Assembly (NCBI GenBank): GCA_030641665.1
Contig: DAOWHA010000050.1
Span: 2,632-66,631 of the forward strand
Reading direction: 5' to 3'
Source of the DNA: a bacterium
Lineage (GTDB): Bacteria > Patescibacteriota > Patescibacteriia > JAACEG01
Length of the DNA: 64,000 nt
The notes under the pieces are model-generated. The model saw only the letters and a list, made by a program, of their open reading frames with translations, searched no databases and was not told the origin of the DNA. Position 1 is the first letter of the stretch; each line of letters starts with the position of its first letter. The position numbers and the translations under genes were made by a program. This document shows positions 11,434 to 63,603 of this stretch, one piece after another.

Positions 11434-12573
11434 ATGTTGAAATATTTTATTAAAACCTACGGCTGCCAGATGAACGAAAGCGATTCGGAAAGAATATCTG
11501 CCACGCTGGAAAATATCAGATATAAAAAAACAGATAATTTTAAAAAGGCTGATTTGATAATTTTTAATATGTGTGCGGTTCGGCAGACAGCAGTTGACCG
11601 CGTTCATGGGCAGTTAAAAAACATAAAAAAATTAAAGGTTGAAAACAAAAGACTGAAAATTTTTTTGACAGGATGTATTTTAGATTGCGATAAAAAAAAA
11701 CTGTCTGAAAAAGTTGATCTTATTTTTGATATTAGAGATCTTGAATCACTTTATCTTTGCGATGAGTTGAGCAACCTCTCCGCTCACTCGCTACACTCAT
11801 TTAACTCCTCGCAAAGACAAGATAAAAAAAATGACTATAATTATCTGAAAATCAAGCCGAAATATGAATATAAAAAATCCGCGCTTATTCCAATTATGAC
11901 TGGCTGCGATAATTTCTGCTCTTATTGCGCGGTGCCTTATACGCGCGGAAAGGAATACTCGCGCCCCGCAGATGATATTTTAAATGAAGTTAAAAATTTA
12001 ATTAAAAATGGATGCGAAAAAATTACTCTATTAGGACAAAATGTGAATAGTTATCGGATGTCGGACGTCAGATGTCGGATGTCAAAAATTTCAAATTTTT
12101 CGAATTTATTAAAATTAATTAACAATATAAAAGGCGAATTTGAAATTAATTTTTTAACAAGCCATCCAAAAGATATGAGTGATAAATTAATTCAGGCAAT
12201 CGCTGAGTGTAAAAAAGTGTCAAAAAACTTGCATCTGCCTTTTCAATCTGGAAGCGACGCAATATTAAAAAAAATGAACAGAAAATATACTCGACAAGAT
12301 TATCTGAATTTAGTTAAAAAAATAAAGACTGCAATTCCTGAAATAAAATTTTCAACAGATGTTATTGTCGGCTTTCCCGGAGAAACAAAAAAACAGTTTG
12401 AAGAAACTGTTAGCGTAATAAAAAAAGTAAATTTTGAAACAATTTATGTAAATAAATATTCTGCGCGAAAAGGAACGCTTGCCGAAAAACTTTACAAAGA
12501 TAATGTTAGTTTAAAAGAAAAAAAATCGCGATGGAGAATAATTAATAATTTTAATAAAAAGTTAAAGAGATAA
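11434..12573 (+). CDS. MiaB/RimO-family radical-SAM methylthiotransferase
   Basis: MTTase N-domain YGCQMNESDSE and radical SAM CDNFCSYC. Adjacent miaA favours MiaB. Carries an in-frame heptamer-repeat insertion YRMSDVRCRMS. Confidence 0.75.
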   Translation: MLKYFIKTYGCQMNESDSERISATLENIRYKKTDNFKKADLIIFNMCAVRQTAVDRVHGQLKNIKKLKVENKRLKIFLTGCILDCDKKKLSEKVDLIFDIRDLESLYLCDELSNLSAHSLHSFNSSQRQDKKNDYNYLKIKPKYEYKKSALIPIMTGCDNFCSYCAVPYTRGKEYSRPADDILNEVKNLIKNGCEKITLLGQNVNSYRMSDVRCRMSKISNFSNLLKLINNIKGEFEINFLTSHPKDMSDKLIQAIAECKKVSKNLHLPFQSGSDAILKKMNRKYTRQDYLNLVKKIKTAIPEIKFSTDVIVGFPGETKKQFEETVSVIKKVNFETIYVNKYSARKGTLAEKLYKDNVSLKEKKSRWRIINNFNKKLKR

Positions 12574-12669
12574 GGGGGGCTATTGCAGTAAAAAATTATT
12601 TTTTACCAACAATTTCTATAGACAATAGCCCGCCTTTTTATAAAATATAATTTACCATATAAAAAAAAT

Positions 12670-13638
12670 ATGTCAAATGTAAATAAAAATATCAAAAATA
12701 AAAAAAGAATTATCGCGATCTTAGGACCCACCGCTGTCGGAAAAACAAAATTGTCCGTAAAATTAGCCTGCCAATTTAATGGTGAAATTGTTAGCGCTGA
12801 CTCGCGGCAAATTTATAAAGGAATGGATGTCGGAACAGGAAAAGACTTGCAAGACTATCAAATAAATCTAAAGTCGAAAAAATTAAAAACTGTAAAAATT
12901 CCTTATCATTTGATTGATGTTGTGAGTCCGAATACTGAATTTAATTTGGCAAAATACCAAAAATTGGCGTACAAAGCGATTGATAATATTCTGTTAAAAG
13001 AAAAAACTCCGTTTTTGGTCGGCGGCAGCGGACTTTATCTGCAAGCGGTTGTTGACGGTTATAATTTATCAGAAACAAAACCTGATAAAAAATTAAGGCG
13101 CGGATTGGAAAAATTGAGCGCGAGCCAACTTTTTGCGCGCTTGCGAAAAATAGACCCTAAATTTGCGAATGAATTGAATAATAGCGATAAAAAAAACAGC
13201 CGGCGACTGATTAGGCGCATCGAACTACTAAAGCAAAATAAAGGCAAGCAATTTCAAAAAAACAAGGTATCTAAGCCAAAATACGATTTTTTAATTATCG
13301 GCCTATCGTTGCCAAAAAATGAACTGAACAAAAAAATTGATCAGCGGATGAAAAAATGGCTTGAACTGGAAAACCTGCTTGGAGAAATTGAAAATTTGCG
13401 CGATCAAGGCGTTAGTTGGAAAAAATTAAATGAATTCGGATTAGAATATAGATTAGTAAGCCATTATTTACGCGAAAAAATCGATTTTCAAGAGATGAAA
13501 AAAACTTTATCGCGCGATCTTAAAAAATTCGCCAAACGGCAAATGACTTGGTTTAAAAGATGGGAAAAGCAAGGAGCGAAAATACATTGGATAAAAAACG
13601 AAAATGAAACGAAAAAATTGATTAAAAAATTTCTGTAA
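12670..13638 (+). CDS. miaA: tRNA dimethylallyltransferase MiaA
   Basis: IAILGPTAVGKTKLS P-loop and SADSRQIYKGMDVGTGK, the canonical MiaA N-terminus. Confidence 0.85.
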   Translation: MSNVNKNIKNKKRIIAILGPTAVGKTKLSVKLACQFNGEIVSADSRQIYKGMDVGTGKDLQDYQINLKSKKLKTVKIPYHLIDVVSPNTEFNLAKYQKLAYKAIDNILLKEKTPFLVGGSGLYLQAVVDGYNLSETKPDKKLRRGLEKLSASQLFARLRKIDPKFANELNNSDKKNSRRLIRRIELLKQNKGKQFQKNKVSKPKYDFLIIGLSLPKNELNKKIDQRMKKWLELENLLGEIENLRDQGVSWKKLNEFGLEYRLVSHYLREKIDFQEMKKTLSRDLKKFAKRQMTWFKRWEKQGAKIHWIKNENETKKLIKKFL

Positions 13639-13651
13639 AAAAATTAAGTCT

Positions 13652-14752
13652 TTAAAAAAGCAGGACATATTTCATATCGCCTAAATTTTTCACCCGTCCT
13701 CCTATTTCAAGCATAGAAAGCGTTGAACTGACGGCTGATAAATCCATTCCTGAACGTTTTGCCAACTGATCAATATGAATCGGATCGCTGCTTAAAAATT
13801 TTAGCAGCGTTTTTTCATCTTGCGACAGCGGCAAAACCTGCTGAACTCTCTCCTTGCGGCTTCTGCTATTTTCCAAATTCAACTCTGTTAAAATATCGCT
13901 GCAATCGGTTATCAGTTTAGCGTTGCCTTTTTTAATTAAATCATTAGTTCCTTCGGAATTTTTGCTGTAAATATTTCCGGGCAAGGCAAAAACTTTTCGC
14001 TTTTGATCTCTTGCATATTCCGCTGTGATTAGCGCGCCAGACTTTAGCGGCGCTTCAATAATCAAAACACCGATGCTTAACCCTGAAATTATTCTATTCC
14101 GTCCTGGAAAATTATAATGAAACGGTTCGGTTCCGGGCGGATATTCTGAAATTACCGCTCCGCCAGATGATATTATTTTTTCCGCAAGCGCTCGGTTCGG
14201 CTGCGGATAAAAATTTTGTTGGTCAAGCCCCGACCCTAAAACTGCGGCTGTAATGCCGCCTAATTCTACCGCCGCGTTATGCGATATAGCGTCAATTCCG
14301 AGCGCCAATCCGCTTGCGATTCCCAATCCGCTTTTAACTAAATCAGAGCTAATTTGATAGGCTGCTTGCCGCCCGTAAGGGCTTGTTTTGCGCGTGCCGA
14401 CAACCGCGAGCAGCGGATTATCAACAGACCGCAAATCCCCCTTATAATAAAGCAAACAAGGCGGGTTTTTTATTTTTTTAAGCAGGCGCGGATAATCATC
14501 GTCTATAATCGCGGATATTTTGATTTTTTCAGCGGCTAATTTTTCTAATTCTTGATCAATATCTGTTTTCTCTTTATAGGCGATAAACTCCTGAGCGATC
14601 ATCTCTTCAAGATCTGCATTTAATAGTTCTGCTAAATCCGCATTCCAGATAAATTCTGCTTCCTTAAAATAAGCGATCAATTTTTTAAATCTTGCCGAGG
14701 TTATTTTTTTAAAGGCCAAAATAGCCGCCCAATACTTGGTATCTCTTGACAT
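13652..14752 (-). CDS. dprA: DNA-processing protein DprA (Smf)
   Basis: Rossmann-like DprA core VVGTRKTSPYGRQ...GLALGIDAISHNAAVELGG. C-terminal winged helix. Confidence 0.85.
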   Translation of the reverse strand: MSRDTKYWAAILAFKKITSARFKKLIAYFKEAEFIWNADLAELLNADLEEMIAQEFIAYKEKTDIDQELEKLAAEKIKISAIIDDDYPRLLKKIKNPPCLLYYKGDLRSVDNPLLAVVGTRKTSPYGRQAAYQISSDLVKSGLGIASGLALGIDAISHNAAVELGGITAAVLGSGLDQQNFYPQPNRALAEKIISSGGAVISEYPPGTEPFHYNFPGRNRIISGLSIGVLIIEAPLKSGALITAEYARDQKRKVFALPGNIYSKNSEGTNDLIKKGNAKLITDCSDILTELNLENSRSRKERVQQVLPLSQDEKTLLKFLSSDPIHIDQLAKRSGMDLSAVSSTLSMLEIGGRVKNLGDMKYVLLF

Positions 14753-15053
14753 TTTTTAATAGTGTGTTATAGTATAATATCGTATTTAAAAATAGTTGGT
14801 TTATATTTTTCTATTTGCCAGCGGCGTATCTTAAAGCCTCTTCCCTCCTTGGCTGATAGATTGCCTGAAAAGCTCTAGGGTTGCGGGATGTTTTCTGTTA
14901 ATTCTAGGCGCTGGCGAATAGTAAAATATAAATCAATTTTCAAACAGTTTTATATTATCATATTTAATTTAAAAATAAAAATAAATTTAAAAAAACGCCA
15001 TTTGCAATATCGCAAACAAGCGTTTTAAAATCACTTTTTAAAAGGAGGCTAAA

Positions 15054-19289: not shown

Positions 19290-19424
19290 ATTTTAGTTTG
19301 CAACCCGAAAATATTGCGCAGGGGTTGATAAATTAATTATTATATGATAATTTCAATATTTGAATTTGTTTGTATCCTTGTTTTTTGTATCTTAATTTTT
19401 TAAAAAACATTATTCTTAGCGCGC

Positions 19425-19565
19425 TGTCTTTGCGAGGAGGCGATAGCCGACGAAGCAATCCTATTACTAAACGAAAAATCTCTACTTTGCATAGTTTATG
19501 CGGATATTAACGAGATTGCTTCGTCGCTCTCTCTCGCTATGCTCATTCGGCTCCTCGCAAAGACA
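19425..19565. repeat. Nested palindromic element, copy 3
   Basis: TGTCTTTGCGAGGAGGCGATAGCCGACGAAGCAATCCTATTACT...GATTGCTTCGTCG...CTCCTCGCAAAGACA. Confidence 0.9.
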
Positions 19566-19756
19566 GCGAGGATTATTTATTCCTAATTCCTAATTCCTAA
19601 TTCATAATTCTTTATTCTTTATTCTTTCTACTTTTTACTTCCCCAATACTCCCTTTAATATAAAATTCCTCTTCTGCTTTATTATCATGCTTATTTTTAA
19701 ACAATTTTTTCTTGACAAAAACATTTAATATGCTATTATTGTAATAAGTCAAACCT

Positions 19757-23642: not shown

Positions 23643-25196
23643 TTAACTCTCTATATAATCTAAAGTATTCTTATAATCCTTAATTAACTTGTTAATTTTC
23701 TCCTCTATTCTTTCATTTAATTCTCCTTTTTCCGCAATCTCTTTTAAAATATCTTCGCCGTTTATTTTCGCGTATTTATTTAATCCAATTTCAAATTCGC
23801 TGATTTTTTCAACAGGGATATCATCTAAAAAGCCAGCGGTAATAGCGTAAAAAATTAAAACTTGATTAGCGACAGGAATCGGTCGATATTGATCTTGCTT
23901 AAATATTTCAACCAATCTTTTTCCTCTTTCTAATTTTGCTTTTGTTTCATCGTCTAAATCAGAACCGAATTGCGCGAACGCGGCTAACTCCCTGTATTGC
24001 GCGGCTTCCAGCCTCATTTTGCCTGCAACTTTTTTCATCGCCTTAATCTGCGCGGCACTTCCTACGCGCGATACTGACAAGCCAGCATTTACGGCAGGCC
24101 TATTTCCTTGATAAAACAGATCTGGTTCAAGATAAATCTGCCCGTCAGTAATTGATATTACATTTGTCGGAATATAAGCAGATACATCTCCCGCCTGTGT
24201 TTCAATAATCGGCAGCGCCGTGATTGATCCTCCGCCGCAATCTTTATTTAATTTACATGCTCTTTCCAGTAATCTTGAATGCAGATAAAAAACATCTCCG
24301 GGATAAGCTTCACGCCCCGGCGGTCGCTTCAATAATAAGGAAATCTCTCGGTAAGCTACAGCATGCTTGCTTAGATCGTCATAAACAATTAAAGCGTCTT
24401 CGCCTTTGTCTAAAAAATATTCCGCTATGGCGCATCCGGCATAAGGCGCGATATAAGAAAACGCCGCCGGGTCGGACGCGCCAGCCAGCACAATAGTAGT
24501 GTAATCCATCGCGCCATGCTCTTCCAGTTTTGCGGCGATGTTAGCGACTTTTGATTCTTTCTGTCCGATTGCGACATAAATGCATTTCATATTCTGCCCT
24601 TTCTGGTTGATAATAGCGTCAATGGCAATCGCGGTTTTTCCGATCTGGCGATCGCCGATTATCAATTCTCTCTGCCCCCTTCCGATCGGAATCATCGCGT
24701 CAATCGCTTTAATTCCCGTCTGAACCGGCTCAAAAACAGATTCTCTGGAAATAACCCCTGGGGCTATTTTTTCAACTGGATAATATTTTTCCGCCTCGAT
24801 TTCACCTTTTCCGTCAATCGGCTGCCCCAAAGCGTTAACAGTTCTGCCGATAATGTTCTCTCCTGTTGGGACTTCTAAAATTCTTTTTAAGCATTTCACT
24901 TCATCGCCTTCTTTAATTTTAGAACAATCTCCTAAAATAATCGCGCCAACACTGTCCTCTTCCAAATTTAAAGCGACACCATATTGGATTTCGGATTTCG
25001 GATTTCGGATTTCGGATTTTTTATTGCTTGAAAATTCAAGCATCTCCGACATCATCACATCGGAAAGCCCTGAAACGCGAGCGATTCCGTCGCCGACTTC
25101 AATGACTTTGCCGACTGTCTGCTCTTTAATCTCTGTTTTAAAATTCGCGATTTGCTTTTTTAATTGTTCAACAATAAAATCTTTTGTATTGCTCAT
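23643..25196 (-). CDS. atpA: F1 ATP synthase alpha subunit (with in-frame heptamer-repeat insertion)
   Basis: Walker [16 protein letters not shown]. Full-length alpha subunit. Insertion [17 protein letters not shown] is encoded by (gatttcg)n at 24987-25019. Confidence 0.95.
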
Positions 25197-30099: not shown

Positions 30100-30855
30100 T
30101 TATAAATTATTATAAGCCTCAACCTGATTATTATATTCGTATTTAATCATTTCGTAATCATCACCCCATTTTTGTTTTGCATTAGTCATAATGTTTGGAT
30201 ATTCAGTTTGAGATATTATCCATTCATAGGCTCCAGCTTGATTGTTGTATTCATACTTCACCATTTCAAAATCATTATTCCATTTGGTTTTAGCTTTTGC
30301 CATAATATCTGGATATCTTGTTTGTGCTACAACCCAGTCGTATACTTGAACTTGATTATTATATTCATATTGAACCATTTCATAATCGGTACCCCATTTT
30401 GAAGAAGCGTTTGCTTTTAGAATTGTAAGGATATTTTCCCTATTAGTTTTTTGGGTTGGCGCAGGTGTCTCAGGTGCTGGCTCTTTTTTTGGAGGAGCAG
30501 TTGCTATTTCTGTAGATATGGTTTCTTCTTTTTGGGTCTTGGGCTTTTCGATAATTTCATTTTTATTTGTTGTTTGCTCCTTCTCTTGTTCGTCATCAAT
30601 TTTTACTGTTTGATTATCCGCCTCAATATTTTCAGAAATTTTATTTTCTTGCGCAACTTGTGGTGTTTGTGTGGTTGGTTCTGTCGTAATTCCAAATAAA
30701 ATAAAAAATACTAAGGCAAAGATTCCAAAAATCATTACTGTAACTTTTCGTGTTGCTCGCTCTTTTAGAAAGCGAATAAAAATGTCTGGTTTAATCAAGC
30801 CAACAATCAATGCAATGATTGAGGTTAAAAATAAAAGTAAAAATAAATTGTCCAT
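30100..30855 (-). CDS. Membrane-anchored protein with three tandem ~36-aa KWGxDYEMVxYEYNNQ repeats (hypothetical)
   Basis: N-terminal two TM, Pro/Thr/Glu-rich linker, then KWGTDYEMVQYEYNNQVQVYDWVVAQTRYPDIM / KWNNDFEMVKYEYNNQAGAYEWIISQTEYPNIM / KWGDDYEMIKYEYNNQ. Confidence 0.5.
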   Translation of the reverse strand: MDNLFLLLFLTSIIALIVGLIKPDIFIRFLKERATRKVTVMIFGIFALVFFILFGITTEPTTQTPQVAQENKISENIEADNQTVKIDDEQEKEQTTNKNEIIEKPKTQKEETISTEIATAPPKKEPAPETPAPTQKTNRENILTILKANASSKWGTDYEMVQYEYNNQVQVYDWVVAQTRYPDIMAKAKTKWNNDFEMVKYEYNNQAGAYEWIISQTEYPNIMTNAKQKWGDDYEMIKYEYNNQVEAYNNL

Positions 30856-31151: not shown

Positions 31152-31412
31152 TTATTTTCCCAACTTAATAAACAATTCTTTGATTTGTTGTTTTAAAAAA
31201 TATTTTCCTTCTGTTGTTTTTAAATATTTTTCTCTTCTTTCGGCATCCTTTTTTAATAAATACGCTTCATAATGAACTAATTTAATCGGCAGCCGCCTAT
31301 TTGTTGATTTGACTTTACCTGATTTGTGCTCAATAATTCTGCGTTTTAAATTGCTCGTAAATCCAGTATACAATTGGTTGTTATTTAATAATAAAATATA
31401 AACATAATACAT
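31152..31412 (-). CDS. GIY-YIG nuclease-domain small protein (UPF0213/YhbQ-like)
   Basis: YYVYILLLNNNQLYTGFTSNLKRRIIEH, a GIY-YIG signature. Sits between the intact tRNA-Ser and a truncated copy. Confidence 0.65.
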   Translation of the reverse strand: MYYVYILLLNNNQLYTGFTSNLKRRIIEHKSGKVKSTNRRLPIKLVHYEAYLLKKDAERREKYLKTTEGKYFLKQQIKELFIKLGK

Positions 31413-31437
31413 AAACTCTTAACCATTGACTTATTAA

Positions 31438-31541
31438 GCGGAGAGGGAGGGATTCGCCCCGATATCCATCGGGGCGCCACGGCGGATGCCGTGGCGAACC
31501 CTCGAGCCAGTTGCCCTGCTAACACCTTAGCAGGGTGCCCC
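31438..31541 (-). pseudogene. 3' fragment of a tRNA-Ser(GCU)-like gene with 40-nt T-loop insert (fragment B)
   Basis: gcggagagggagggattcg[ccccgatatccatcggggcg ccacggcggatgccgtggcg]aaccctcgagccagttgccctgctaacaccttagcagggtgcccc. Lacks D arm and 5' acceptor. Confidence 0.7.
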
Positions 31542-31598
31542 TTTTTTAACCCCGTCGGAAATCCGATATCGAAATCCGAATTCCGAAATAGAAATAGC

Positions 31599-31684: not shown

Positions 31685-31727
31685 AATATATTTAATTGTG
31701 TATAAAAATAAATTTGCCCGTTAACTT

Positions 31728-31843
31728 GGATTCGCCCCGATATCCATCGGGGCGCCACGGCGGATGCCGTGGCGAACCCCCGGAACCCTTGCGGGTTCTC
31801 CGGTTTTCAAGACCGGCGCATTAGACCGCTCTGCCACGCTTCC
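31728..31843 (-). pseudogene. 5' fragment of a divergent tRNA-Ser(UGA)-like gene with 40-nt T-loop insert, 3' acceptor strand missing (fragment D)
   Basis: Sense GGAAGCGTGGCAGAGCGGTCTAATGCGCCGGTCTTGAAAACCGGAGAACCCGCAAGGGTTCCGGGGGTT[insert]CGAATCC, then unrelated sequence. Confidence 0.65.
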
Positions 31844-46874: not shown

Positions 46875-46955
46875 AAATGCTTAAAATTTGCAATTACCAA
46901 TTTGGCAATGAATTTGCAATTTTCTAATTTTCAATTTTACTAACTTTAACCATTC

Positions 46956-47131
46956 TGTCTTTGCGAGGAGCGAATGGAGCGATAGCGAAATGAGTAACGA
47001 AGCAATCCCATTACTGAGCGAACAAATCTATAATTATAATTTGTCTATGCTTTTGTATAGTTTGCACGGTTAGTAATGGTATTGCTTCGTCGCGCCTCTC
47101 TCGCTTCGCTCGTTCAGCTCCTCGCAAAGAC
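46956..47131. repeat. Nested palindromic element, copy 10 (long variant)
   Basis: TGTCTTTGCGAGGAGCGAATGGAGCGATAGCGAAATGAGTAACGAAGCAATCCCATTACTGAGCGAACAAATCT...ATTGCTTCGTCGCGCCTCTCTCGCTTCGCTCGTTCAGCTCCTCGCAAAGACA. Confidence 0.9.
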
Positions 47132-47234
47132 ATCTTAATTATAAAATGTATCTAAAAAATAATTGGTAATTAAAAATTTGAAAATTTAATAATTGATTGA
47201 TAATTGCAAATTGGTAATTAAAAATTTATTTTTC

Positions 47235-50200
47235 TTAAAACTCTGACGCTATAATATATCCATTATAATATTCCCATTGATTGCATACTGCTCTTGTCGT
47301 ATCGCCATTGCACCAGTCCCAATTGTCTTTTAGCCTAATTCTCGGCTGGGTCGCGCAGCAAGGAAATGCTCCGCAGACAACGGATAAATCCCCGAACAGC
47401 GTTGCCCCTGCCGCGCCGCACTCTATTGAAACAGAACTTGGATCATTCAATAACATCTCGTAATAACTGTATTGCCTTGATTCTGAATGCGGATCGTCCT
47501 CGTCAGGTCTGTCTTGTATTCCGTTACTCACATAACTTATGTTCGGACTTGCGTCAGTGCCGTCGCCCCAGTCAATCCAATAGGTCGCGAGCGGAAGCTG
47601 GTTATAGTCTATAATGCTGTTAAATTCCAAATTGACATCATTGGAGATAGAAAAATTATAATTGCCGCTAATATTGCCGTTAACTTTAATATTTTCAACT
47701 ATCGGCGGCACCCCGCAAAAATCGCAAGTCGCACCTGCCGGGTTAGAACCGCAGCCTGCAAAGCAGTCTCCTCCTGCGCAAAGCCCTGTTGTATTGGAAT
47801 AGGCTGGTCTTGCGGCTGGAGTTCCCGCGCAAATATTATCAGGCGGATTCCAGTCATTCAAAACGCAGGCAATGTCTATGCCGCAATCCCTGTACTGGCT
47901 ACTGGCGTGATCCCACTCCCATGTTCCGTAACTTTTCGCGAAAATGCGCTTTAAAATTTCAACAGCGTTATTATCGCTTATGTTTCCTAAATTGCTTATC
48001 GGTTCGCAAGTTTCGCATATAGTATGCGCATCATTACAAGGACAGTGCAAAAGAAGGTTGTCGTCATGGTGATTCCAGTCTCCGCTCGGATAAGGATGCG
48101 CACAAATAAGTTCAGGGTGTCCGCTGCACCTGCCAATAACATCGCAAGTATTGCCTTGAGTTGAACCATCGCTGCATCCGTATGGCAAGCCGGCAATAGC
48201 GCCTTCGCTTAAATTCTCCCTAAAAAGTATCGGGTCTAAAATATCAGTGTTATCATTTCCGTCCCAATAGATAGGATTAACCCCTTCTGGCGGAATCATA
48301 GAGCCGAACGGCTTATCTTCAGAAGTATGATAATAATCAAAACTGCCAAGTTCTCCTGTCCTATAATCTGTGCCGTCGCGCACCCTGTCTGTCCACGCCT
48401 TATTCTCGCCAATGTCAAAATGCGAAACGGTCTGATATATTTTATCGCATCTTAAGCGGTAATCCATAGGATCAACTAATCTGCTTTCCGTATAATCATA
48501 TATCATCACTTGCGGATCAGGATTTGGTTCGTTTAATACTAAATCTCCATCATAAATATACCAATTTCCGCTAATTGGGATATGCGTAGCGTCGTTTTTA
48601 GGGATACATGTAAATCTTAAATTATATTCGGTATCAGTATTAAAGGCGCCGCAATTCCCATCTGAATAAATTCTAACTTCTACTTTGTAATTTGTACTAT
48701 TACAAGTTTGCATTCCAGCATCATTATCATTATAAACTATCATTCTGCTTCCACAGCCTCCATTTAAAAAGTTTGTTAAATCACCATAATATGCTCCATT
48801 TATTATAAGACTGGGCAGCCCAGCAAGCATCCAGTCTGCAAAAGCGGTAAGAAGATTAGTGTCGCAACAATAATCATCTAAATCAGATATTATTTCAGAT
48901 GTTCTATTCTCCACAAAATCAAAGTTAGCGTCCATATCAGAGCAGTAGAATACAGGGAACTTGCCGTCGTATCCCAGCACTCTTCCTGTCTCTTCAATCC
49001 CTTCGGACGACAGCTTGTCAACCGGCCACCAGAGCAAGCATTGCCTCGGATTTCCCGGAAATCGGTCATACTCTAAGCAGTAGCCGAATTTACCAATATT
49101 TTTAATTCCGGAATCGCTGAAATACTCGCAGCTTAAAGCGTCCTGCTTAGGATACGACCTGCAAGTCTGCGGCGAATAGACATCAGTGTCTCCGATTTTT
49201 AACGCAGGCTTAATCCTGATTTCGTCAATATAAAAATTGCCGTCAGGCGCGCTTCCCGGGGCGACAAGCCTTAAAACTATCCTCTTGGTGCTTAAATCAA
49301 CATCAAACGCCGCAGTTTTAAACTGCCAATAGTCTGAACGCGGAACAGACAAAATCGAATGATAGTCTCTTATCATATTTCCAAAAGCGTCCATCTCGCG
49401 CAGTTGAATCTCCGCGTTGCTGGCTTTTAAATTTAAGGTATTAACCCAAGCGCTCACAAAATATCTGTTCCCTTCTTCTGTGCCGATTAAAGATATGGTT
49501 TCGGTTACGGCAGCATAGTCGGCTCCTACGCTTAAAAAAGACCTTCCTTCCGGAGACATATATTCAAGCCCTATCCCTTGCGCTGAAACCGGATCGGAGA
49601 TGACTGAAAACTCGTCTTCAAAAAGAGCCCCTTCATAAAGCCAGCCGACAGGATAGTCAATATTTTCAATCAGCTCAAAATTATTGTTCGGGATTTTTAT
49701 CTGGACGCTTTCCTGGCTCATCGTATGCAGAGGATAATATCCTTCAGCAACTCCTTGCTTTCCTATCTTTGTATATCCTGCTCTATCCCGAATATCATCC
49801 AAGGAGACAGTAGCGTTTGCCGTTTGATTTATCGGCTCGCTCACTACAAAGCCGTCGCATTTGCCCTGTTCATTCATAGAATTGCACGCTCCAATATCAG
49901 TACATTTTCTTTTTATCGCGCCGTCTTTGCCTGTAACATTAACAGTCCCCTTGCAATACAGCCACTCTCCGCAAGTCCTGGTCGGCTTGACTTTTACCAG
50001 CAGGTTTGAATCGCAAGTCCCATCTGGAATTCCTCCGATTAAACAGCTTTGCGGCGTATTAATATTTTTATCGTTTCTGTCAGCGTCATAAATAATATCT
50101 TCTATCGCCAAGCCGCTTGATATCTCGCGCCTGTTAAATAAAACGCATCCTTTTTCATAATCAACAAGCCCATTGCACTCCGCTTTGTCAATAGAACTGT

Positions 50201-53200
50201 CTATATTATAATAAATTCCTGTTTTTAAAATTTTAACAAATTCAGACGGAACCAAATTTCCGCTAACGCTCAAATCGCAATTAATCGCCGAATCTTTGCC
50301 AGTATAAAACCGTCCGCTAAACTGCTGATCGCTTTCATCAGAAACAATCTGCGCTCCGTTAATAGGGGTAATAATATCCATTGAGTCGTCAGGCGATATT
50401 AAATCAATCGGGTTGCCAACTAAACCGTCAACGCAATTTTCTAATATAATCGCGCTGCCGGCGCCGTTAGAATTGCTTAACACTGTATAAACGGTGTCTT
50501 GCTCTAACCGAACAGGAACATTTGTAATATAATCGCCGGCTGCAACGCTCCAACCGTCAGGAACTCCGTCAACATCGACATCTTGAGCAAAATCGCCGTT
50601 AAAAACGATATTTTTTGAAATTGAACTTATCGGATCAATATATTCCGCGCAGCCGTCAATTTCAGGCGGGCAAATCGCTGTCCAATTATTGCAATAGCCT
50701 CCCGGACAATCAGCATCAGTCTCGCAGATTCCGCCGCCTCCGCCCAGACAGGTTTTAGCCGCGTACTCAACGCCGATATCAGAATATGCCAAAGGGCAAT
50801 TCGGCGCTCCGGAAGTAGTATTAGCAAGATACCAACCAGCATCTGTCTGTCCCCCAACTAATTTATATTCACAAATTTTAGCGTCTCCCTTGATTCTCTG
50901 TGATACAGGATCTTTAAAATAAGAATCGCCCATAACATCTGAACTAAATTTTCCGCAGCCGACATTATCAAAAAGACAGAGCGTATCGTTATATTCATCA
51001 GGGTCGTTAATTTTATAAACAGTTTCATATTGATACAGATCATCTCTGTCGTCGGCAAGATTTTCAGTTGTTTTATTCATATTATACCTGTAATTTGCAG
51101 TTCCTAAAGCAGAGCATCCTTTCTCTTTTGATTTGCAAATTTTCCCCTTATCATTAACTAGCGTGTCAATTTTGTCGCCAAAAACAGTGATTTCAGATAT
51201 ATCGCCCAAATTAAATATTTCTTCTAAATAACTATGAGAATTAAATGTGTCAATCAGCGCTTCGCATCCTGCGACATCTTCGCCGCATAAGCGATTAAAT
51301 GATTTTAAATATACTGTCTGTTTTTCAACCTCGCTCTCATACTCTTCGCATCCAAGCATATATTGCGGAGCGTAAGCGCCGTTATGGTCTTGATCGCATA
51401 CTGATGAAACATTCCAAAAATCAGGTCTGATTAAAAACAGCTTGTCGCGCTCCTCTTTTAAGATAATATTGTCAATATAGGAAATGCCGCTAAAACCGCT
51501 GATTCTTAATGTTTCTAAAATATTATCGCCCGGCGCACTCATTGGATCGTCGCTGCTCATATCCCAGCCGACTAAAACAGGACCTAATGAATATTTCTGC
51601 CACTCCGGACCTAAATTAACCGAACCGCTCGCGAACTCTTCTCCTGCCGGCGCGCTGGAAAATTCAGCCGTCAGGCTTCCTGCTCCTTTTGCCCAAAAAG
51701 AGAGGAAATAAGTTTTTTGATGTCCGAGCAAAGATTTGTAAAGGCAGGTCTGTTCAGTGTTTTGCGCGTAACAGACTGTTTCATTATTAACTTCGCATTC
51801 GCATCCTTCGTCTAAAGCGCAAACAAATCCTAAATCGCAATGCGCTTTTAAGGAATAGTTCATGTCGTCGCCCAAATTGATTTTCAAACTATGCCCACCT
51901 CTAATCAGAGACTCGCTGCTAAGAGCTCCGACCCCACAATTATTAACCGCCTGTTCAAATCCGTCGTCAATAACCTTGCGGATATTATTGCTTGTGTTTC
52001 CCCTATATTCATAACAATCGTTTTTTGACGCGGGGCAAACAATCCCTTGCTCGGACAAAGCTTCATAAATGCATTCGTTGTTAGCGCTCCATTCGCCCCA
52101 ATCCCAACTGCCGGCAGAATGGACAACGCAGTCTGCCTGTGATGATTTTGTCTTGCGGTAAGGATGGCAGTCATCAGAGCAACTAACTGTATTTTTATAA
52201 TGCCGATAAGAGATAATATTTGCTTCGCTGTAAAATTCATTGCATTCCGGATTTCTGATCGCGTCGTCATAATTATTACAGTCTCCAAAAATATCAGCGG
52301 CGTCGGCTATATTATATATATTGTCAGGATAGCCGTTGCTATCAGCGTCTAACAGCATATGAGCGACAAGCTGGAATCCTGTCTCTTCTGAGCCGATCCA
52401 TGTGTAAAACGACGCGCAATCACCGTTAATTCCATGGCATGGCCGCAGATAAGAAAAATATTCAATCGCTTCGCCGCCTTCTTCTAATTTGTCTAAATTC
52501 GTAAATTCAGAGCATCCCGCGTATTGCGCCGAGCATTTTTCCTCGTTGTTCGGAATTAAAAACTCTGGAAATTTTTCGCTCTCAAAAAAAGTCGCTTCCT
52601 GCTTGTAGGCGTTATAGCCGTTGCAAGTCTCGGGGCAAAAATCATCAGACCGAACCACTCCCGGAATGCTCGGATCGCCATTCGTTGGTTCGTATAAATC
52701 GCATCCGACATCGTCTGGTCGGCATTCTAATGCAAAGTTAGCGCATTGCTCGGATCCGCCTTCCGCGCATCGCTCAATATCCGTTCGCCAAAAATGCCCT
52801 GCTGTTTCACATCCTGACTGATCGTCAAAAGCATCGTTATATACGGTATATAATTCGCAATTATAATAATCAGGAGCTTTTTTTAAATAGAGCGAATTGC
52901 TGTTATGATAATCTTCATAACTAAACAGATATCCGTCTCCAGCTACTTCTTCTAATTGGACAGAATCAATTAAGCACCCAAGCGGAATTCCTCCTGCCGC
53001 GCCGCTCACGCTGATTGTCAATTCCGTGTCAAAAGCGTCAATTGTTCCGTCGGTTGGAAAAGTGTAATTAACATTAAACCGCTCCCAGTCATCGTTGTTG
53101 CCAGATATTAATTCAATCGGCGATCCTGCTATGGCTGGAATATAGAATTGAAAATTAGTTCCGACACAATTTTGCGCGTAAAAAGAAAAACTGAACTTTC

Positions 53201-55874
53201 TGCCTTCTAAATTATATCCTGTGTCAATAACTTTTGTCAGATTAGCCGCTGCGCCGTTTAAAGACCTAAAAGCTGTGGCGCCGATAAAACTCGCGCTGGT
53301 TGCTTCTCCTGCCGCGGACGCCCATTCTATAAAAGTATCGGCTATGCTGTCATCAATAATGTCTGTTTCTAAAATATCAGTAAAACTTGAGTTAGTAATC
53401 AGATTAGTCCCCAAATTCGGCTTTGTCCTAATATACTCGCGGCACCCCTCGCTGGAACTGGAACAAATTTCCGCTTTTTTGTTTAGATAAATGTCATTAT
53501 TAACATTAGGAACAAGCTCTTGATTTATCGTAAGCCGCGCTTTTGATCCGTCTAAAACGCATTCTATCCCTTTATGCGGAACAACGCACGATTCAATAAT
53601 GTCGCCGTCTTGGTCAATATCATTTACATCCGCAATTTCGCATCCGTCTGCATTGGCGCAATAATTATCTAAATTCAAATCCCACCCTTGGCTTAAGCAA
53701 GCCCAAGCGTCGTCCCCCGCGTTTCTTGAAGCGCAATGCCATTCGCATCCGGCGCTGTCTTCACTGCATCCGCCGTACTCCGCAGTATTTTTCAGATAAA
53801 AAACTTCGTTTCCTTTCGGAGACGCGAAAGACTGGCAAGTATTATAATAACTGTCGCATTCATCTCCTTGAAAATCCCAAACGCGCTTCTCCTCTGAACA
53901 GTATCCGTAAAAAAGGCAATTTCCTTTTGCATCTTCTTTTAAGCAAGACTGTTCGTCGGCGCAATATCCGTCTCTCATAATATTAACGCGCGGCTTCTGG
54001 TCATACTCGTCGTCAAAGTCGCCATCGCTGTCAATGTCAATTCCTTGTGAAACTTCTTCGCTGATTATCTTCTCTCCTATTCCTTCAAGTTCGCAAAAAA
54101 GTTCCGGCGCTTTCAGCACCCAGCTCGGATCAATCAGTTTATAAAAAGGCGAGGCAGGATCGTCAAACCCGCTTATTACTTCCTGAATATTATAAATCCT
54201 GAAATCAGAGGTTTGATTGCCAATATGCCTTGCGGCTAATTCCCAGCCGACCGGGATTATTCTGTATTTTCTTAAAATTACCAAATTTCTATAAGAGTAT
54301 CCTTGATTATACAGCGGCTCAATATCTTTTGAAGTAAATCCGAACGGAAAATTGCCGCTTATATATCCTTGATTAAGAGCTTCCTGAACCGTAAGTTCCT
54401 GCTGGACAGCGTCGGCGAACTGCTGCGTAATTACGCATTCTGTCGGTCCGGCGTTTTCAGGATCAGGGCACATTAACAATTTTGACAAAATTGAATAAGC
54501 TCCGCCTGTTTTATAATCCGGCTGAAAAATTTTTGAATATTTCGCTTTGGCGGCTTTAGCGCCCTGGCTGACCCTGGCTGCGGATATTCTGCTTGCCGAA
54601 CTGTCAACACCGCTCAGCCAGTTATAATCTGAATCTTCGTCATCTCCGCGCAGTTTAGCCATCCCTTCCATCACCCATTTGTTGATCAACTTGCTCATTA
54701 AAGTATTAGCGAAAGTCGCGACTGCGTCGGCTATAATGTCGCCCGTGAAAACTTCTTCAAACTTCGTCCCTTCGTCAATCGGCTTGGTTCCCATTTTATA
54801 GACCACATTACCAGGCGTTAAAATATTTCCTGCGGCATCTGTGATAGCTTTCCAGCCGCCGCCCTCTTTCCGCGCTTTTTCAGCAGTATCAATTCCAGCC
54901 TTTCTTTTTTCTAAAAAATCACTATGCATTGTTAAAGCGATTCCGATGTCGTTCTCTTCCGGATTCCAATATCCTTGAAAGCGAGTTAAAAAATCAGGAT
55001 CGTTCACAAACTCATCCCAATTTCGCGAAGCGCGGCTGTATGTGCACTTCGGCTTTTTCGGCCTCTGTATTTCAGCTAAATCAGCTGTTAATCTCATCTT
55101 AACATTAAAATCCGGCTCGCATAAAAATTGCACTATGGATCCTGCCGCCCCCTTGCTATATCTTGAGCCAGCAGATCCAGCGGTAGGACCGCCAAAATCT
55201 TTCTTACTTAAATCATCTGTCTGTTTTTCGTAAATTTCAAGGCATTTAATCGAATGATCTCCTTCGCATACGCTCCAACAATTCTCAATGATCATTTTTT
55301 CTGAATTTGGCAAAAGATTAAAATTGTCTGGTATTTCTCCGCACTTTTTTTCACATCCGCTAACAAAATCTTTCGAGCATTCTATAAAATCATCGTTAGT
55401 TTTTGAATAAGCATCTTCTTCTGAGGAATGCCTGTCCCACTGGCTCGCCGCTGCCATAATAGCTGTTCCTGCGGCTTCATCAGCCGCGTCCAGCATATAT
55501 TCCTCCCAATTAGAAGTAAAAATCATCGGCTTCTGACCCTTGTCTCCGCTCGCTACCCAAGTCGCGCTTTCTAAAGCTAAATTGCGCAAAAAATTATGCA
55601 GCGCTGCCTTAAAGCCAACCGCCGCCCAATGCTTGCCGAGTTTCTCTTCTGCTACTTCCCATTTTTCCCAAGCCCATTTTAACGCATCGCTTACTCTTGA
55701 CCATATATTTGATAATGTATTTGGGATAGAAGAGACATCAGTCGTTACTTCAACGGGAATCGCCCGAGCGTTTTTTACTATCAATAAATTAAATCCTACT
55801 GAATGAAAAATAAACAGAAACAGAATCATTAAAATAACTAATCTGTTTTTTTTCTTTTTTGTTTTGTTAAACAT
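47235..55874 (-). CDS. Giant (2879 aa) secreted Cys-rich protein with scattered Ca-binding DxDxDG loops (hypothetical surface protein)
   Basis: Signal-anchor KKKKNRLVILMILFLFIFHSVGF...ARA. About 5% Cys throughout. Loops DIDSDGDFDDE and DIDQDGDIIE. Continuous ORF uninterrupted on minus strand. No catalytic motif seen. Confidence 0.8.
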   Translation of the reverse strand: MFNKTKKKKNRLVILMILFLFIFHSVGFNLLIVKNARAIPVEVTTDVSSIPNTLSNIWSRVSDALKWAWEKWEVAEEKLGKHWAAVGFKAALHNFLRNLALESATWVASGDKGQKPMIFTSNWEEYMLDAADEAAGTAIMAAASQWDRHSSEEDAYSKTNDDFIECSKDFVSGCEKKCGEIPDNFNLLPNSEKMIIENCWSVCEGDHSIKCLEIYEKQTDDLSKKDFGGPTAGSAGSRYSKGAAGSIVQFLCEPDFNVKMRLTADLAEIQRPKKPKCTYSRASRNWDEFVNDPDFLTRFQGYWNPEENDIGIALTMHSDFLEKRKAGIDTAEKARKEGGGWKAITDAAGNILTPGNVVYKMGTKPIDEGTKFEEVFTGDIIADAVATFANTLMSKLINKWVMEGMAKLRGDDEDSDYNWLSGVDSSASRISAARVSQGAKAAKAKYSKIFQPDYKTGGAYSILSKLLMCPDPENAGPTECVITQQFADAVQQELTVQEALNQGYISGNFPFGFTSKDIEPLYNQGYSYRNLVILRKYRIIPVGWELAARHIGNQTSDFRIYNIQEVISGFDDPASPFYKLIDPSWVLKAPELFCELEGIGEKIISEEVSQGIDIDSDGDFDDEYDQKPRVNIMRDGYCADEQSCLKEDAKGNCLFYGYCSEEKRVWDFQGDECDSYYNTCQSFASPKGNEVFYLKNTAEYGGCSEDSAGCEWHCASRNAGDDAWACLSQGWDLNLDNYCANADGCEIADVNDIDQDGDIIESCVVPHKGIECVLDGSKARLTINQELVPNVNNDIYLNKKAEICSSSSEGCREYIRTKPNLGTNLITNSSFTDILETDIIDDSIADTFIEWASAAGEATSASFIGATAFRSLNGAAANLTKVIDTGYNLEGRKFSFSFYAQNCVGTNFQFYIPAIAGSPIELISGNNDDWERFNVNYTFPTDGTIDAFDTELTISVSGAAGGIPLGCLIDSVQLEEVAGDGYLFSYEDYHNSNSLYLKKAPDYYNCELYTVYNDAFDDQSGCETAGHFWRTDIERCAEGGSEQCANFALECRPDDVGCDLYEPTNGDPSIPGVVRSDDFCPETCNGYNAYKQEATFFESEKFPEFLIPNNEEKCSAQYAGCSEFTNLDKLEEGGEAIEYFSYLRPCHGINGDCASFYTWIGSEETGFQLVAHMLLDADSNGYPDNIYNIADAADIFGDCNNYDDAIRNPECNEFYSEANIISYRHYKNTVSCSDDCHPYRKTKSSQADCVVHSAGSWDWGEWSANNECIYEALSEQGIVCPASKNDCYEYRGNTSNNIRKVIDDGFEQAVNNCGVGALSSESLIRGGHSLKINLGDDMNYSLKAHCDLGFVCALDEGCECEVNNETVCYAQNTEQTCLYKSLLGHQKTYFLSFWAKGAGSLTAEFSSAPAGEEFASGSVNLGPEWQKYSLGPVLVGWDMSSDDPMSAPGDNILETLRISGFSGISYIDNIILKEERDKLFLIRPDFWNVSSVCDQDHNGAYAPQYMLGCEEYESEVEKQTVYLKSFNRLCGEDVAGCEALIDTFNSHSYLEEIFNLGDISEITVFGDKIDTLVNDKGKICKSKEKGCSALGTANYRYNMNKTTENLADDRDDLYQYETVYKINDPDEYNDTLCLFDNVGCGKFSSDVMGDSYFKDPVSQRIKGDAKICEYKLVGGQTDAGWYLANTTSGAPNCPLAYSDIGVEYAAKTCLGGGGGICETDADCPGGYCNNWTAICPPEIDGCAEYIDPISSISKNIVFNGDFAQDVDVDGVPDGWSVAAGDYITNVPVRLEQDTVYTVLSNSNGAGSAIILENCVDGLVGNPIDLISPDDSMDIITPINGAQIVSDESDQQFSGRFYTGKDSAINCDLSVSGNLVPSEFVKILKTGIYYNIDSSIDKAECNGLVDYEKGCVLFNRREISSGLAIEDIIYDADRNDKNINTPQSCLIGGIPDGTCDSNLLVKVKPTRTCGEWLYCKGTVNVTGKDGAIKRKCTDIGACNSMNEQGKCDGFVVSEPINQTANATVSLDDIRDRAGYTKIGKQGVAEGYYPLHTMSQESVQIKIPNNNFELIENIDYPVGWLYEGALFEDEFSVISDPVSAQGIGLEYMSPEGRSFLSVGADYAAVTETISLIGTEEGNRYFVSAWVNTLNLKASNAEIQLREMDAFGNMIRDYHSILSVPRSDYWQFKTAAFDVDLSTKRIVLRLVAPGSAPDGNFYIDEIRIKPALKIGDTDVYSPQTCRSYPKQDALSCEYFSDSGIKNIGKFGYCLEYDRFPGNPRQCLLWWPVDKLSSEGIEETGRVLGYDGKFPVFYCSDMDANFDFVENRTSEIISDLDDYCCDTNLLTAFADWMLAGLPSLIINGAYYGDLTNFLNGGCGSRMIVYNDNDAGMQTCNSTNYKVEVRIYSDGNCGAFNTDTEYNLRFTCIPKNDATHIPISGNWYIYDGDLVLNEPNPDPQVMIYDYTESRLVDPMDYRLRCDKIYQTVSHFDIGENKAWTDRVRDGTDYRTGELGSFDYYHTSEDKPFGSMIPPEGVNPIYWDGNDNTDILDPILFRENLSEGAIAGLPYGCSDGSTQGNTCDVIGRCSGHPELICAHPYPSGDWNHHDDNLLLHCPCNDAHTICETCEPISNLGNISDNNAVEILKRIFAKSYGTWEWDHASSQYRDCGIDIACVLNDWNPPDNICAGTPAARPAYSNTTGLCAGGDCFAGCGSNPAGATCDFCGVPPIVENIKVNGNISGNYNFSISNDVNLEFNSIIDYNQLPLATYWIDWGDGTDASPNISYVSNGIQDRPDEDDPHSESRQYSYYEMLLNDPSSVSIECGAAGATLFGDLSVVCGAFPCCATQPRIRLKDNWDWCNGDTTRAVCNQWEYYNGYIIASEF

Positions 55875-62683: not shown

Positions 62684-62843
62684 AAAATAAAAGGACTGTT
62701 TGCCGCGCAAATCTCAAGGGCTTGATTTTTTATATTTTTTTTGTAGAATAATTAATAACGATAAAATATTCAAAGAATTGAAAAAATGGTAAATTAAATT
62801 TAAATAGTCCGAAATCTGATATCTGAAATCTGATATCCGATAT

Positions 62844-62917
<74 letters not shown>

Positions 62918-63026
62918 CAATTTCAGATATCTGATATCGGAATTCAGATGTCGGATTATATTTAAATAATCCGAAATTCGATTTTTGAATTACTGATATT
63001 AAAAAATTAATCTTTATAGCAACTTT

Positions 63027-63287
63027 ATGACAATCACTGGGAGGATTATTTTCGGTTTAATCGGCATCGCTGTCGGTTATCTTTTTGTTCGATATTCTGA
63101 ATGGTTTTTTAGAACCATCGGATCTATCGGCTGGGCTGAAAAATGGCTTCATGGCGAAGGCGGAACGCGCCTTGTCTTAAAACTATTTGGAATTTTAATT
63201 ATCTTTTTGTCTTGTTTGATGATAACCGGACTCTTGGGCGGTTTTATGAGATGGCTGCTGTCGCCCCTAATAAACCTTTATCAGTAA
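63027..63287 (+). CDS. Hypothetical small membrane protein between tRNA genes
   Basis: 86 aa, two TM (IIFGLIGIAVGYLFV; LFGILIIFLSCLMITGLLGG). Confidence 0.35.
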   Translation: MTITGRIIFGLIGIAVGYLFVRYSEWFFRTIGSIGWAEKWLHGEGGTRLVLKLFGILIIFLSCLMITGLLGGFMRWLLSPLINLYQ

Positions 63288-63297
63288 AAATAATTGT

Positions 63298-63370
63298 GGG
63301 CGTATCCCGATTCGAACGGGAGGCCTCCACGATGTCACCGTGGCGCTCTAACCAACTGAGCTATACGCCC
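63298..63370 (-). tRNA. tRNA-Val(GAC): tRNA-Val (anticodon GAC)
   Basis: Sense GGGCGTATAGCTCAGTTGGTTAGAGCGCCACGGTGACATCGTGGAGGCCTCCCGTTCGAATCGGGATACGCCCA. Anticodon loop GTGACAT. Confidence 0.85.
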
Positions 63371-63435
63371 TTTCGGATTTCGGAATTCAGATGTCGGATA
63401 TCGGATTATATTTAAATAGTCTGACATCCGAAATG

Positions 63436-63508
63436 TGGGCATGGGAGGAATTGAACCTCCGACATCCACGTTATAAGCGTGGCGCTCTAACCGCTGAGCT
63501 ACATGCCC
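63436..63508 (-). tRNA. tRNA-Ile(UAU): tRNA-Ile with genomic anticodon TAT (UAU), AUA decoder
   Basis: Sense GGGCATGTAGCTCAGCGGTTAGAGCGCCACGCTTATAACGTGGATGTCGGAGGTTCAATTCCTCCCATGCCCA. Anticodon loop CTTATAA gives T34 A35 T36. Confidence 0.7.
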
Positions 63509-63603
63509 GTAGCAGATATCGGACTTCGGAAATCGGATATCGGACTATTTAAATTTAAAATTTAATTCTAACTCAAATTCATTATAGCACAATAAAAACT
63601 GCT

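Follow-up and report, generated by a model that had tools for sequence, protein, structure and literature searches.

A heptanucleotide repeat family at tRNA flanks and in frame within atpA, recG and miaB of a Patescibacteriota contig

A family of seven-nucleotide tandem repeats recurs along a 64,000-nucleotide stretch of a Patescibacteriota genome (Candidatus Parcubacteria; GenBank assembly GCA_030641665.1, contig DAOWHA010000050.1, positions 2,632 to 66,631 of the forward strand), to which we refer in full as the window. Arrays of these heptamers flank tRNA genes, and others lie in frame within the coding sequences of three conserved proteins, AtpA, RecG and MiaB. With moderate confidence, we regard the tracts as a heptanucleotide family of long simple-sequence repeats, resembling the STRR (short tandemly repeated repetitive) sequences of cyanobacteria, that evolves most likely by replication slippage and template switching. 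This is the simplest account that covers all of the observations. As in repeats of the STRR type, the tracts are tandem, more abundant than composition predicts, dispersed and variable in copy number.

Phased double units of the form TCGGAWNTCGGAW, with at most one mismatch and on both strands, match the window 29 times, where dinucleotide-preserving shuffles lead us to expect 1.6 +/- 1.2 and yield a maximum of 5. All but one of the 29 fall within tracts listed in the original prediction, which had been drawn up from the sequence alone, and period-7 repetition was recovered at every coordinate it named. Tandem Repeats Finder (TRF) reports fully matched arrays at 24986-25019 (GGATTTC x4.9) and 34239-34272 (ATCCGAC x4.9), in atpA and recG respectively, and imperfect arrays at 12054-12083, 31558-31595, 31948-31992, 62814-62843, 63371-63407 and 63518-63544, with copy numbers of 4.3-6.4 across the set. 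Period 7 is the sole enriched period in the window: a scan at 80% lag identity returned five non-low-complexity tracts of this period and none of periods 5, 6 or 8-11. The tracts are mostly noncoding (16 of 22 period-7 tracts lie outside long open reading frames (ORFs), which occupy ~82% of the window and leave ~18% noncoding), and the local GC content ranges from 0.29 to 0.45.

The repeat unit is best written as TCNGA followed by two bases, mostly A or T (TCNGAWN), and at least nine TCNGA tracts are found, at five regions of the window. Since the TCNGA core is an interrupted palindrome, one strand of an array reads TCYGA (pyrimidine-core) and the other TCRGA (purine-core). The unit contains no stop codon in any of its six frames, and arrays consequently appear in proteins as heptapeptide repeats, such as SEIRNPK or PTSDIRH. 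The inverted tracts around tRNA-Ile(GAU) had also been described as built on a core, ATTTAAATA. Over the full window this motif is no more frequent than expected (8 against 8.2), but six of its eight occurrences adjoin tracts of the tRNA cluster at 62.8-63.6 kb, at four sites of which two are palindromic and thus counted once per strand.

The tract in atpA offers the clearest view of how these arrays change. The coding sequence (23643-25196, minus strand; TIGR00962, 819 bits) carries a heptamer tract at 24984-25019, delimited by TRF, phased-unit counting and comparison with solved structures, which reads AAAAAA(UCCGAAA)4UCCAAUA in the mRNA. Relative to solved F1 alpha subunits, AtpA has exactly 12 additional residues, equivalent to an insertion of ~36 nt. 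In an AlphaFold model, the addition is a coil that lies between beta strands 51-56 and 71-78 in the N-terminal beta-barrel and has a predicted local distance difference test score (pLDDT) below 50; the model is poor overall (mean pLDDT 62), and only this local statement is drawn from it. Among relatives, which we label L001-L180 for loci and P0274 and P0291 for proteins, the closest AtpA (L001, 95% identical) has two units, reading TCCGAAGTCCGATA, to the window's five, and the gap between them is exactly 21 nt, or three units and seven amino acids. At 84% identity, L005 has five perfect units preceded by (GAGCGAATTTA)2, and in L003 (86% identity) a 27-nt GC-rich hairpin stands between the only two units. 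As read from these alignments, slippage in steps of whole units is directly visible in atpA. The corresponding loops of L176, L177 and L178 consist of 10-nt and 21-nt repeats of CACGRAT-like motifs without heptamers, which indicates that some expanded loops are of non-heptamer origin.

The recG gene (NF008168, 786 bits) presents three states at a single site. Its tract, (ATCCGAC)4 ATCCGAA at 34238-34274 on the plus strand, was delimited by TRF, phased units and comparison with relatives; it encodes NPTSDIRHPTSE(M) within the linker between helicase motifs II and III. This linker is 16 residues longer than that of Thermotoga maritima RecG, and the insertion amounts to ~33 nt. In L180 (82% identity) the tract is absent and the site reads EKSGNKKTMSHF, while L006 (87% identity) has another array at the same site, (GAAAGTN)4-5, which looks to have been seeded by local GAAAAAT codons. 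More distant RecG proteins (54% identity) return to the TCNGA family, with (TCCGAAA)5 in L007 and the window's own unit type in L008, there broken by a GC-rich insert. A second, AT-rich period-7 tract of AATCAAA-like units lies upstream at 34020-34047 (plus strand; TRF and alignment), encodes ELKIKNQKLN and sits within a segment missing from T. maritima RecG.

The MiaB gene (TIGR01574, 377 bits against a cut-off of 355) contains TCGGATG TCGGACG TCAGATG TCGGATG TC at 12054-12084 (plus strand; TRF and phased units). The tract encodes (R)MSDVRCRMS in a variable loop that follows the LLGQNVNSY motif and is only ~3 residues longer than in the solved MiaB of B. uniformis. Here divergence has proceeded by substitution: L179 (77% identity) retains the same five units at unchanged length and differs by six single-base changes, of which three affect the N of TCNGA and three other unit positions.

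Across homologues, all three loops vary widely in length, from 5 to 28 residues in AtpA, 13 to 48 in RecG and 2 to 69 in MiaB (n = 110 for MiaB). Their peptides carry the imprint of the heptamer as identity at lag 7, which reaches 0.189 in AtpA loops (0.04-0.08 at other lags) and 0.128 in MiaB and is weak, at 0.095, in RecG. In other lineages, (AAATTCA)n underlies peptides such as KFKIQNS; this sibling of (AAATCCG)n, shifted towards AT, is also intergenic in the window, at 32651-32742. The view that the coding tracts are repeat-derived, lineage-variable and in frame within permissive loops is thereby supported, in that the nearest relatives either vary in copy number or have no tract, and translation yields the peptides that had been proposed, MSDVRCRMS included. 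Both orientations occur in coding sequence, UCCGA-type units in the mRNAs of atpA and recG and UCGGA-type units in that of MiaB, again as proposed. Homologues that share a peptide share the underlying heptamer DNA, and the unrelated codons that would have told against the prediction were not seen among them; for instance, SEIRNPK is written as (TCCGAAA)n in L005 and in L007, and PTSDI...SEM recurs in L008. The further proposal that heptamers preserve the frame by coming in threes stands in part. The AtpA and RecG insertions are indeed multiples of three nucleotides, but they are not multiples of 21; the tracts hold 4.3-5 units, and an exact three-unit step is seen only against the nearest AtpA relative. 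All atpA, recG and miaB alleles of the relatives are in frame; a search among them for frameshifted alleles found none, and the on/off pattern of phase-variable loci was not observed.

Some of the same loops harbor inserts of another kind. Short GC-rich hairpins occur in frame within heptamer tracts or in the same loops, in AtpA of L003 (~10170-10200), in the RecG linker of L008 and in MiaB proteins P0274 and P0291. They include CCCCGCCTCTCGCGAGAAGCGGGG and CCGCTTCGCAGCGAGGCGAGCG and encode peptides such as WIPACAGMTG. Their entry sites are TCCG|A-like and resemble the TTCG|AA of tRNA T-loops, and they may represent a second, sequence-targeted class of small insert.

In noncoding DNA, the arrays concentrate at tRNA genes, of which the window has six, as had been stated. 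The tRNA-Ile(GAU) gene (62844-62918, plus strand) is predicted to sit atop an imperfect leader-trailer stem of ~45 bp. Its leader (62795-62843, plus strand) comprises AAATTTAAATAG followed by five UCYGA-type units that stop 3 nt short of the mature 5' end, and its trailer (62919-62990, plus strand) carries complementary UCRGA-type units and a small hairpin around TATATTTAAATA at 62941-62984. The arms at 62808-62829 and 62920-62941 are 91% complementary, bearing out the inverted arms that had been claimed here, and the fold has z = -6.0 against shuffles. In a nearby operon on the minus strand, tRNA-Ile with a UAU anticodon (63435-63508), which is uncommon in bacteria, accompanies tRNA-Val(GAC). 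Its leader (63509-63560) likewise combines AAATTTAAATAG with UCCGA-type units, and the spacer to tRNA-Val (63371-63434) consists of a purine-core arm, a TATTTAAATA core and a pyrimidine-core array. The purine-core arm pairs with the tRNA-Ile(UAU) leader, such that this tRNA is bracketed by arms at 63406-63431 and 63533-63558 (88% complementary, fold z = -3.5), and the pyrimidine-core array stops 2 nt before tRNA-Val. In general, the phase of an array holds until 2-3 nt short of the mature 5' end of a tRNA.

The tRNA-Ser operon, also on the minus strand, is arranged similarly. The tRNA-Ser(UGA) trailer (31546-31596; phased units and inverted-repeat call) bears units that are UCGGA-type in the RNA sense and is partly complementary to 31905-31922; in L180 this trailer has ~2 units only. 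The operon leader holds an inverted heptamer array (31906-31992) with paired arms at 31914-31935 and 31967-31988 about an AT-rich centre, the two full arms being unequal, at 24 and 45 nt. On the opposite strand, a perfect TTGACA-17-TATAAT promoter has its -35 box immediately next to the array. The same layout of purine-core arm, short AT-rich loop and pyrimidine-core arm recurs between tRNA-Ser genes in L007 and L008. The two remaining genes differ: tRNA-Ser(GCU) has no array, and upstream of tRNA-Arg lies only an AT-rich period-7 inverted pair (32651-32842, plus strand; AAATTCA and TTTGGAT types), whose arms at 32652-32692 and 32759-32799 are 71% complementary and look like a decayed sibling of the TCNGA family.

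The leader-trailer pairing brackets the mature tRNA in the manner of RNase III-type stems, according to in-silico folds and inverted-repeat calls. The inverted repeats lie in their entirety downstream of the best promoter-like sites, which are at 63608-63581 (TG + TTTAAA-16-TATAAT) and 32086-32059 (TTGACA-16-TATTAT) on the minus strand and at 62722-62749 on the plus strand; the arms should consequently be transcribed, and probably are. We considered whether TATTTAAATA might itself act as the -10 box of the downstream tRNA and rejected the idea, given these better sites upstream, the pairing of the core within the predicted stems and the lack of enrichment of the motif in the window. Rfam searches with the tracts returned nothing above threshold. 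Taken together, the clustering at tRNAs and the pairing of leaders with trailers suggest a use for the stems in pre-tRNA processing, or at the least tolerance of them there.

Other features were noted at tRNA-Ser sequences. A GIY-YIG nuclease ORF of 86 residues (31152-31412, minus strand; Pfam 55 bits) separates tRNA-Ser(GCU), which is intact, from a 3' fragment of that tRNA (31437-31545); a pair of GC-rich hairpins, 40 nt in all, interrupts the T-loop of the fragment at TTCG|AA. Since two relatives (L008 6285-6660 and L180 94-480) keep this arrangement, it resembles a homing-type element that has settled in a tRNA gene. At 31727-31843 (minus strand), the T-loop of a tRNA-Ser(UGA)-like sequence contains this 40-nt double hairpin as well; the sequence scores 30.4 bits with the Rfam tRNA model (threshold 29), receives no ARAGORN call and has a T-stem and 3' acceptor strand that look degenerate. 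In L007 (1340-1570), a complete tRNA-Ser(UGA) lies between the inverted repeat ccccgcacaaaagc / gcttttgtgcgggg, apparently inside the anticodon region of a second tRNA-Ser-like sequence. Other array families occur beside tRNA-Ser and upstream of recG in relatives, namely (GTGTTTT)n and the 9-nt AAGATAAAT (L007 1125-1165; L008 7610-7760 and 7300-7390), and they too have inverted arms and an AT-rich centre.

A course of events that would yield both settings can be outlined. Arrays would gain or lose whole units through replication slippage; the nearly self-complementary core would allow an array to fold back, whereupon template switching may copy it across an AT-rich centre and generate inverted arms. 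In noncoding DNA, arrays could persist freely, gathering in tRNA leaders, trailers and spacers. There, a UCYGA arm 5' of a tRNA and a UCRGA arm 3' would form a long stem that brackets the tRNA, or else a hairpin 2-3 nt before its 5' end, and such stems may serve, or at least be tolerated, as double-stranded processing or insulating stems of the pre-tRNA. In coding DNA, the survivors would be frame-keeping alleles in length-tolerant surface loops, differing between relatives by three-unit steps or point mutation; selection for frame and tolerant loops would suffice to explain the coding sites.

Heptamers of this type are not confined to the lineage. Searching species-representative genomes for (TCCGAWA)3 retrieved at least 120 stretches with GC contents of 0.31-0.72; the matches listed include Verrucomicrobiota, Acidobacteriota, Planctomycetota, Chloroflexota, Bacteroidota, Deltaproteobacteria, Saccharibacteria, Staskawiczbacteria and others. 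In 863 kb around the 120 listed loci, perfect arrays of at least three copies number 210 for period 7, compared with 18, 3, 6, 3, 2 and 2 for periods 4, 5, 6, 8, 9 and 10 and none for periods 11 or 12, although the period-7 count is biased by the choice of loci through a heptamer array, of which many further arrays are neighbors. Placement about genes at these loci says little: a 71 to 72 split between sense and antisense positions in ORFs is uninformative, given the long spurious ORFs of high-GC DNA and the stop-free unit, and the orientation bias in 5' untranslated regions is weak (36 versus 19). The cross-phylum matches might be taken as the sign of a special unit or of transfer, a notion weakened by permuted controls. 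In viral contigs, the real unit was found in 31 stretches and three composition-matched permuted heptamers in 12, 11 and 18; with controls only 2-3 times rarer, wide occurrence needs neither transfer nor a conserved factor.

The association with tRNAs does extend beyond the lineage, and it lends tentative credence to a less likely alternative in which the arrays are primarily selected RNA elements, modular stems conserved across phyla that direct or insulate the processing of tRNAs and rRNA spacers (for example by RNase III), with the coding copies as by-products. A metagenome scan for three or more phased TCYGA units at most 12 nt from the 5' end of a tRNA starting GGGCnnnTAGCTCAG found 47 loci (GC 0.35-0.65), including tRNA-Ile/tRNA-Ala spacers of rRNA operons (GC 0.55-0.65), where a series of purine arm, loop, pyrimidine arm and tRNA is repeated with the second tRNA. 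No match was found for the same pattern in viral contigs, nor in metagenome contigs for an exact 39-mer of the window's tRNA-Ile(GAU). Across ~45 helices from the 47 loci and the relatives, arms remain complementary in register despite differing units within an arm: pairs are 84% Watson-Crick, and, with the register set by Watson-Crick pairs only and hence neutral between the two classes, 73 G-U stand against 35 A-C (p = 3e-4). One orthologous hairpin 5' of a tRNA-Ile in rRNA spacers has kept 42 pairs through four compensatory changes among five distinct sequences. Polarity is consistent at tRNAs that the search did not choose, with four pyrimidine-core and no purine-core arrays in the 40 nt upstream and ten purine-core to one pyrimidine-core in the 40 nt downstream, and the window's arrays lie downstream of promoter-like sites. 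The downstream count, however, depends in part on the tRNA that follows, itself a selected one; DNA-level palindrome correction could mimic the covariation by likewise keeping arms complementary; TCNGA arrays are missing at two of the window's six tRNAs, and close relatives have no arrays at the same tRNAs; and only 2 of 150 arrays at the 120 genome loci fall within 100 nt of a tRNA. A bolder version, quite unlikely in our estimation, would have the TCNGA stems as a selected modular cis-element of stable-RNA operons in several phyla (tRNA leaders and trailers and 16S-23S spacers), read by a dedicated double-strand-specific factor, prone to slippage and seeding copies into coding loops. Were it true, the stems would be a so far unrecognised pre-tRNA processing signal.

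Set against our preferred account, a repeat family driven by slippage and template switching, are several observations. Slippage alone leaves the gathering of arrays at tRNAs unexplained. Arrays accompany only four of the window's six tRNAs and some are missing in close relatives, which makes any processing role dispensable. The metagenome pattern itself required tRNA-adjacent arrays, with no control core alongside, a point that also tells against selected RNA elements, and the excess of G-U over A-C could stem from strand-biased deamination in highly transcribed DNA. At the sites of L006 and L180 that are syntenic with 31906-31992, the 85-nt array is missing. Finally, tract-free L180 contains no recognisable seed for the window's RecG tract, which matches the dominant unit of the genome and is easier to reconcile with a copy brought in from another place than with an origin at the site.

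The seedless RecG tract and the hairpin that is present or absent as a whole are the reasons to retain a mobile or templated origin as a rival. It would hold that inverted arrays with an AT-rich core are small non-autonomous mobile elements, akin to repetitive extragenic palindromes or miniature inverted-repeat transposable elements, inserted pre-formed beside tRNAs and occasionally into genes. The recurrence of the ATTTAAATA core at four array sites, the presence of TCCGAWA units in many phyla and the AtpA loop of L005, which joins a CGAAT-type arm to an ATCCG-type arm like a whole hairpin, are all compatible with this idea. We nevertheless judge it unlikely. There is no fixed element length and there are no consensus ends, arm lengths and unit order varying at every site; no clear target-site duplication is apparent, the single comparison of filled and empty sites (31906-31992 against L006 and L180) showing at most TTT repeated at the junctions; and no transposase was seen in the annotated flanks of the relatives, the ORFs of the window not having been screened for one. 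The permuted heptamers, as noted, account for wide occurrence without transfer. Similarly, the coding tracts are 30-36-nt tandem arrays, among which a conserved palindromic in-frame element of 100-150 bp was not seen. Relatives differ by unit steps and point changes, no mobile-element hallmarks were seen, and for this reason the active, strand-independent spreading mechanism invoked in the original prediction is not upheld.

Least probable, and indeed scarcely credible, is that the peptide repeats are retained for a benefit to the protein, such as interaction surfaces, with the DNA periodicity secondary: the same three loops do hold expanded periodic peptides in many Patescibacteria, and the MiaB tract has kept its length at 77% identity, but the peptides differ freely between close relatives, some of which have none, identical DNA units occupy noncoding DNA, GC-rich hairpins are tolerated within coding tracts and the AtpA loop is predicted to be disordered.

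Further repeats populate the window. Inverted arms of a different heptamer family (AATTGCA / AATTGGT) enclose a GC-rich hairpin element of ~200 nt at 46885-47226 (plus strand; fold z = -13.3), and related tracts lie at 5842-5874. The element itself (CTGTCTTTGCGAGGAG...CTCCTCGCAAAGACAG, ~170-210 nt) is present in two copies that are 79% identical, at 19405-19585 and 46925-47145; inverted arrays of AATTGSN heptamers bracket one copy (fold z = -13), and (ATTCCTA)n at 19579-19634 adjoins the other. No Rfam family matches either copy, and the elements could be an unrecognised small RNA or a miniature mobile element. Longer-period repeats are found at 40583-40844 (a 111-nt tandem repeat) and within an ORF at 30120-30399 (a 114-nt repeat). 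Two giant ORFs of 2096 and 2879 residues (38669-44959 and 47235-55874, minus strand) occupy a block of GC 0.40-0.45, compared with ~0.29-0.38 for the rest of the window. In L007, the stretch just upstream of the tRNA-Ser pair (752-1120) holds an ORF with bAvd / 23S-rRNA-IVP domains, a type of accessory protein of diversity-generating retroelements.

These observations would extend the dynamics of simple repeats to core enzymes, even among candidate phyla radiation bacteria with their small genomes, with the same three loops of AtpA, RecG and MiaB acting as sinks for heptamer-derived peptides across Patescibacteria. This has a bearing on annotation, on alignment-based phylogeny of these markers and on adaptive readings of "lineage-specific insertions". 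Heptamer stems beside tRNAs, which are also found in rRNA spacers of unrelated high-GC bacteria, provide a testable candidate for a processing or insulating element, and the tracts may prove useful as natural strain markers for uncultured lineages. Our literature searches turned up nothing on TCNGA units, on tRNA-flanking heptamer arrays or on comparable tracts in proteins of Patescibacteria; as far as we could find, neither the concentration at tRNA flanks nor the occurrence of in-frame tracts in three conserved enzymes has been described before.

The closest parallels are to be found among known prokaryotic heptanucleotide repeats. As relayed by later papers, these form the most abundant class of long simple-sequence repeat in many prokaryotes, with slippage proposed as their origin, and long-unit repeats have been reported mainly from large, GC-rich genomes (Mrazek 2007, via PMC4679880, PMC4692102). 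Heptanucleotide repeats are often inverted pairs whose length varies between close relatives (PMC4679880, PMC4692102). The tracts in the window share the dispersed tandem 7-nt units, the intergenic excess, the preference for period 7 and the variable length; they differ in their TCNGAWN unit and in belonging to a low-GC, probably small Parcubacteria genome. Xanthomonas GGGAATC repeats comprise 70-75 convergent inverted pairs per genome, mostly transcribed and with copy numbers of 2-26, and both these and the STRR-type GGGGA(T/C)T repeats of Nostoc vary extensively in length and sequence between close relatives (PMC4692102). An association of GGGAATC repeats with tRNAs goes unreported there, the word tRNA being absent from that paper (PMC4692102). 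A GGAWT-like core is common to these heptamers and to ours, but the units described here cannot form G-quadruplexes. A third family, TAACTGA, has a scattered phylogenetic distribution across Beggiatoaceae, cyanobacteria and Bacteroidetes and consists mostly of direct repeats just upstream of start codons, with one inverted pair only (PMC4679880). Its forward orientation has stops in all frames, and the few copies within ORFs take the stop-free orientation and lie mostly at protein ends (PMC4679880). TAACTGA contains CTGA and is one base off the ATCTGAW units found here. Unlike TAACTGA, TCNGA arrays are open in six frames and can therefore sit inside domains, as they do in the conserved domains of these enzymes.

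More distant comparisons are also instructive. STRR heptamers reportedly occur inside the gene for RNase P RNA in heterocystous cyanobacteria (work of Vioque from 1997); both there and here, repeats are tolerated at a permissive site of an essential gene product, an RNA helix in that case and a protein loop in ours. The Rickettsia palindromic elements are said, in work of Ogata and colleagues from 2000, to be 100-150 bp long, conserved in sequence, thought mobile and in frame in protein genes. They too add repeat-derived surface peptides without loss of function, whereas the tracts here are arrays of 30-36 nt that change by unit steps. In Entamoeba histolytica, short tandem repeats that vary between strains reportedly fill tRNA gene spacers (work of Clark and colleagues from 2006); there, in a eukaryote, unit lengths are varied, and to our knowledge these arrays have neither the inverted-arm stems nor the coding tracts seen in the window. 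Finally, the leader-trailer stems of rRNA operons are cut by RNase III, and in both systems complementary flanks enclose a stable RNA; the stems described here, as predicted from sequence, differ in being modular, assembled from heptamers and flanking tRNAs.

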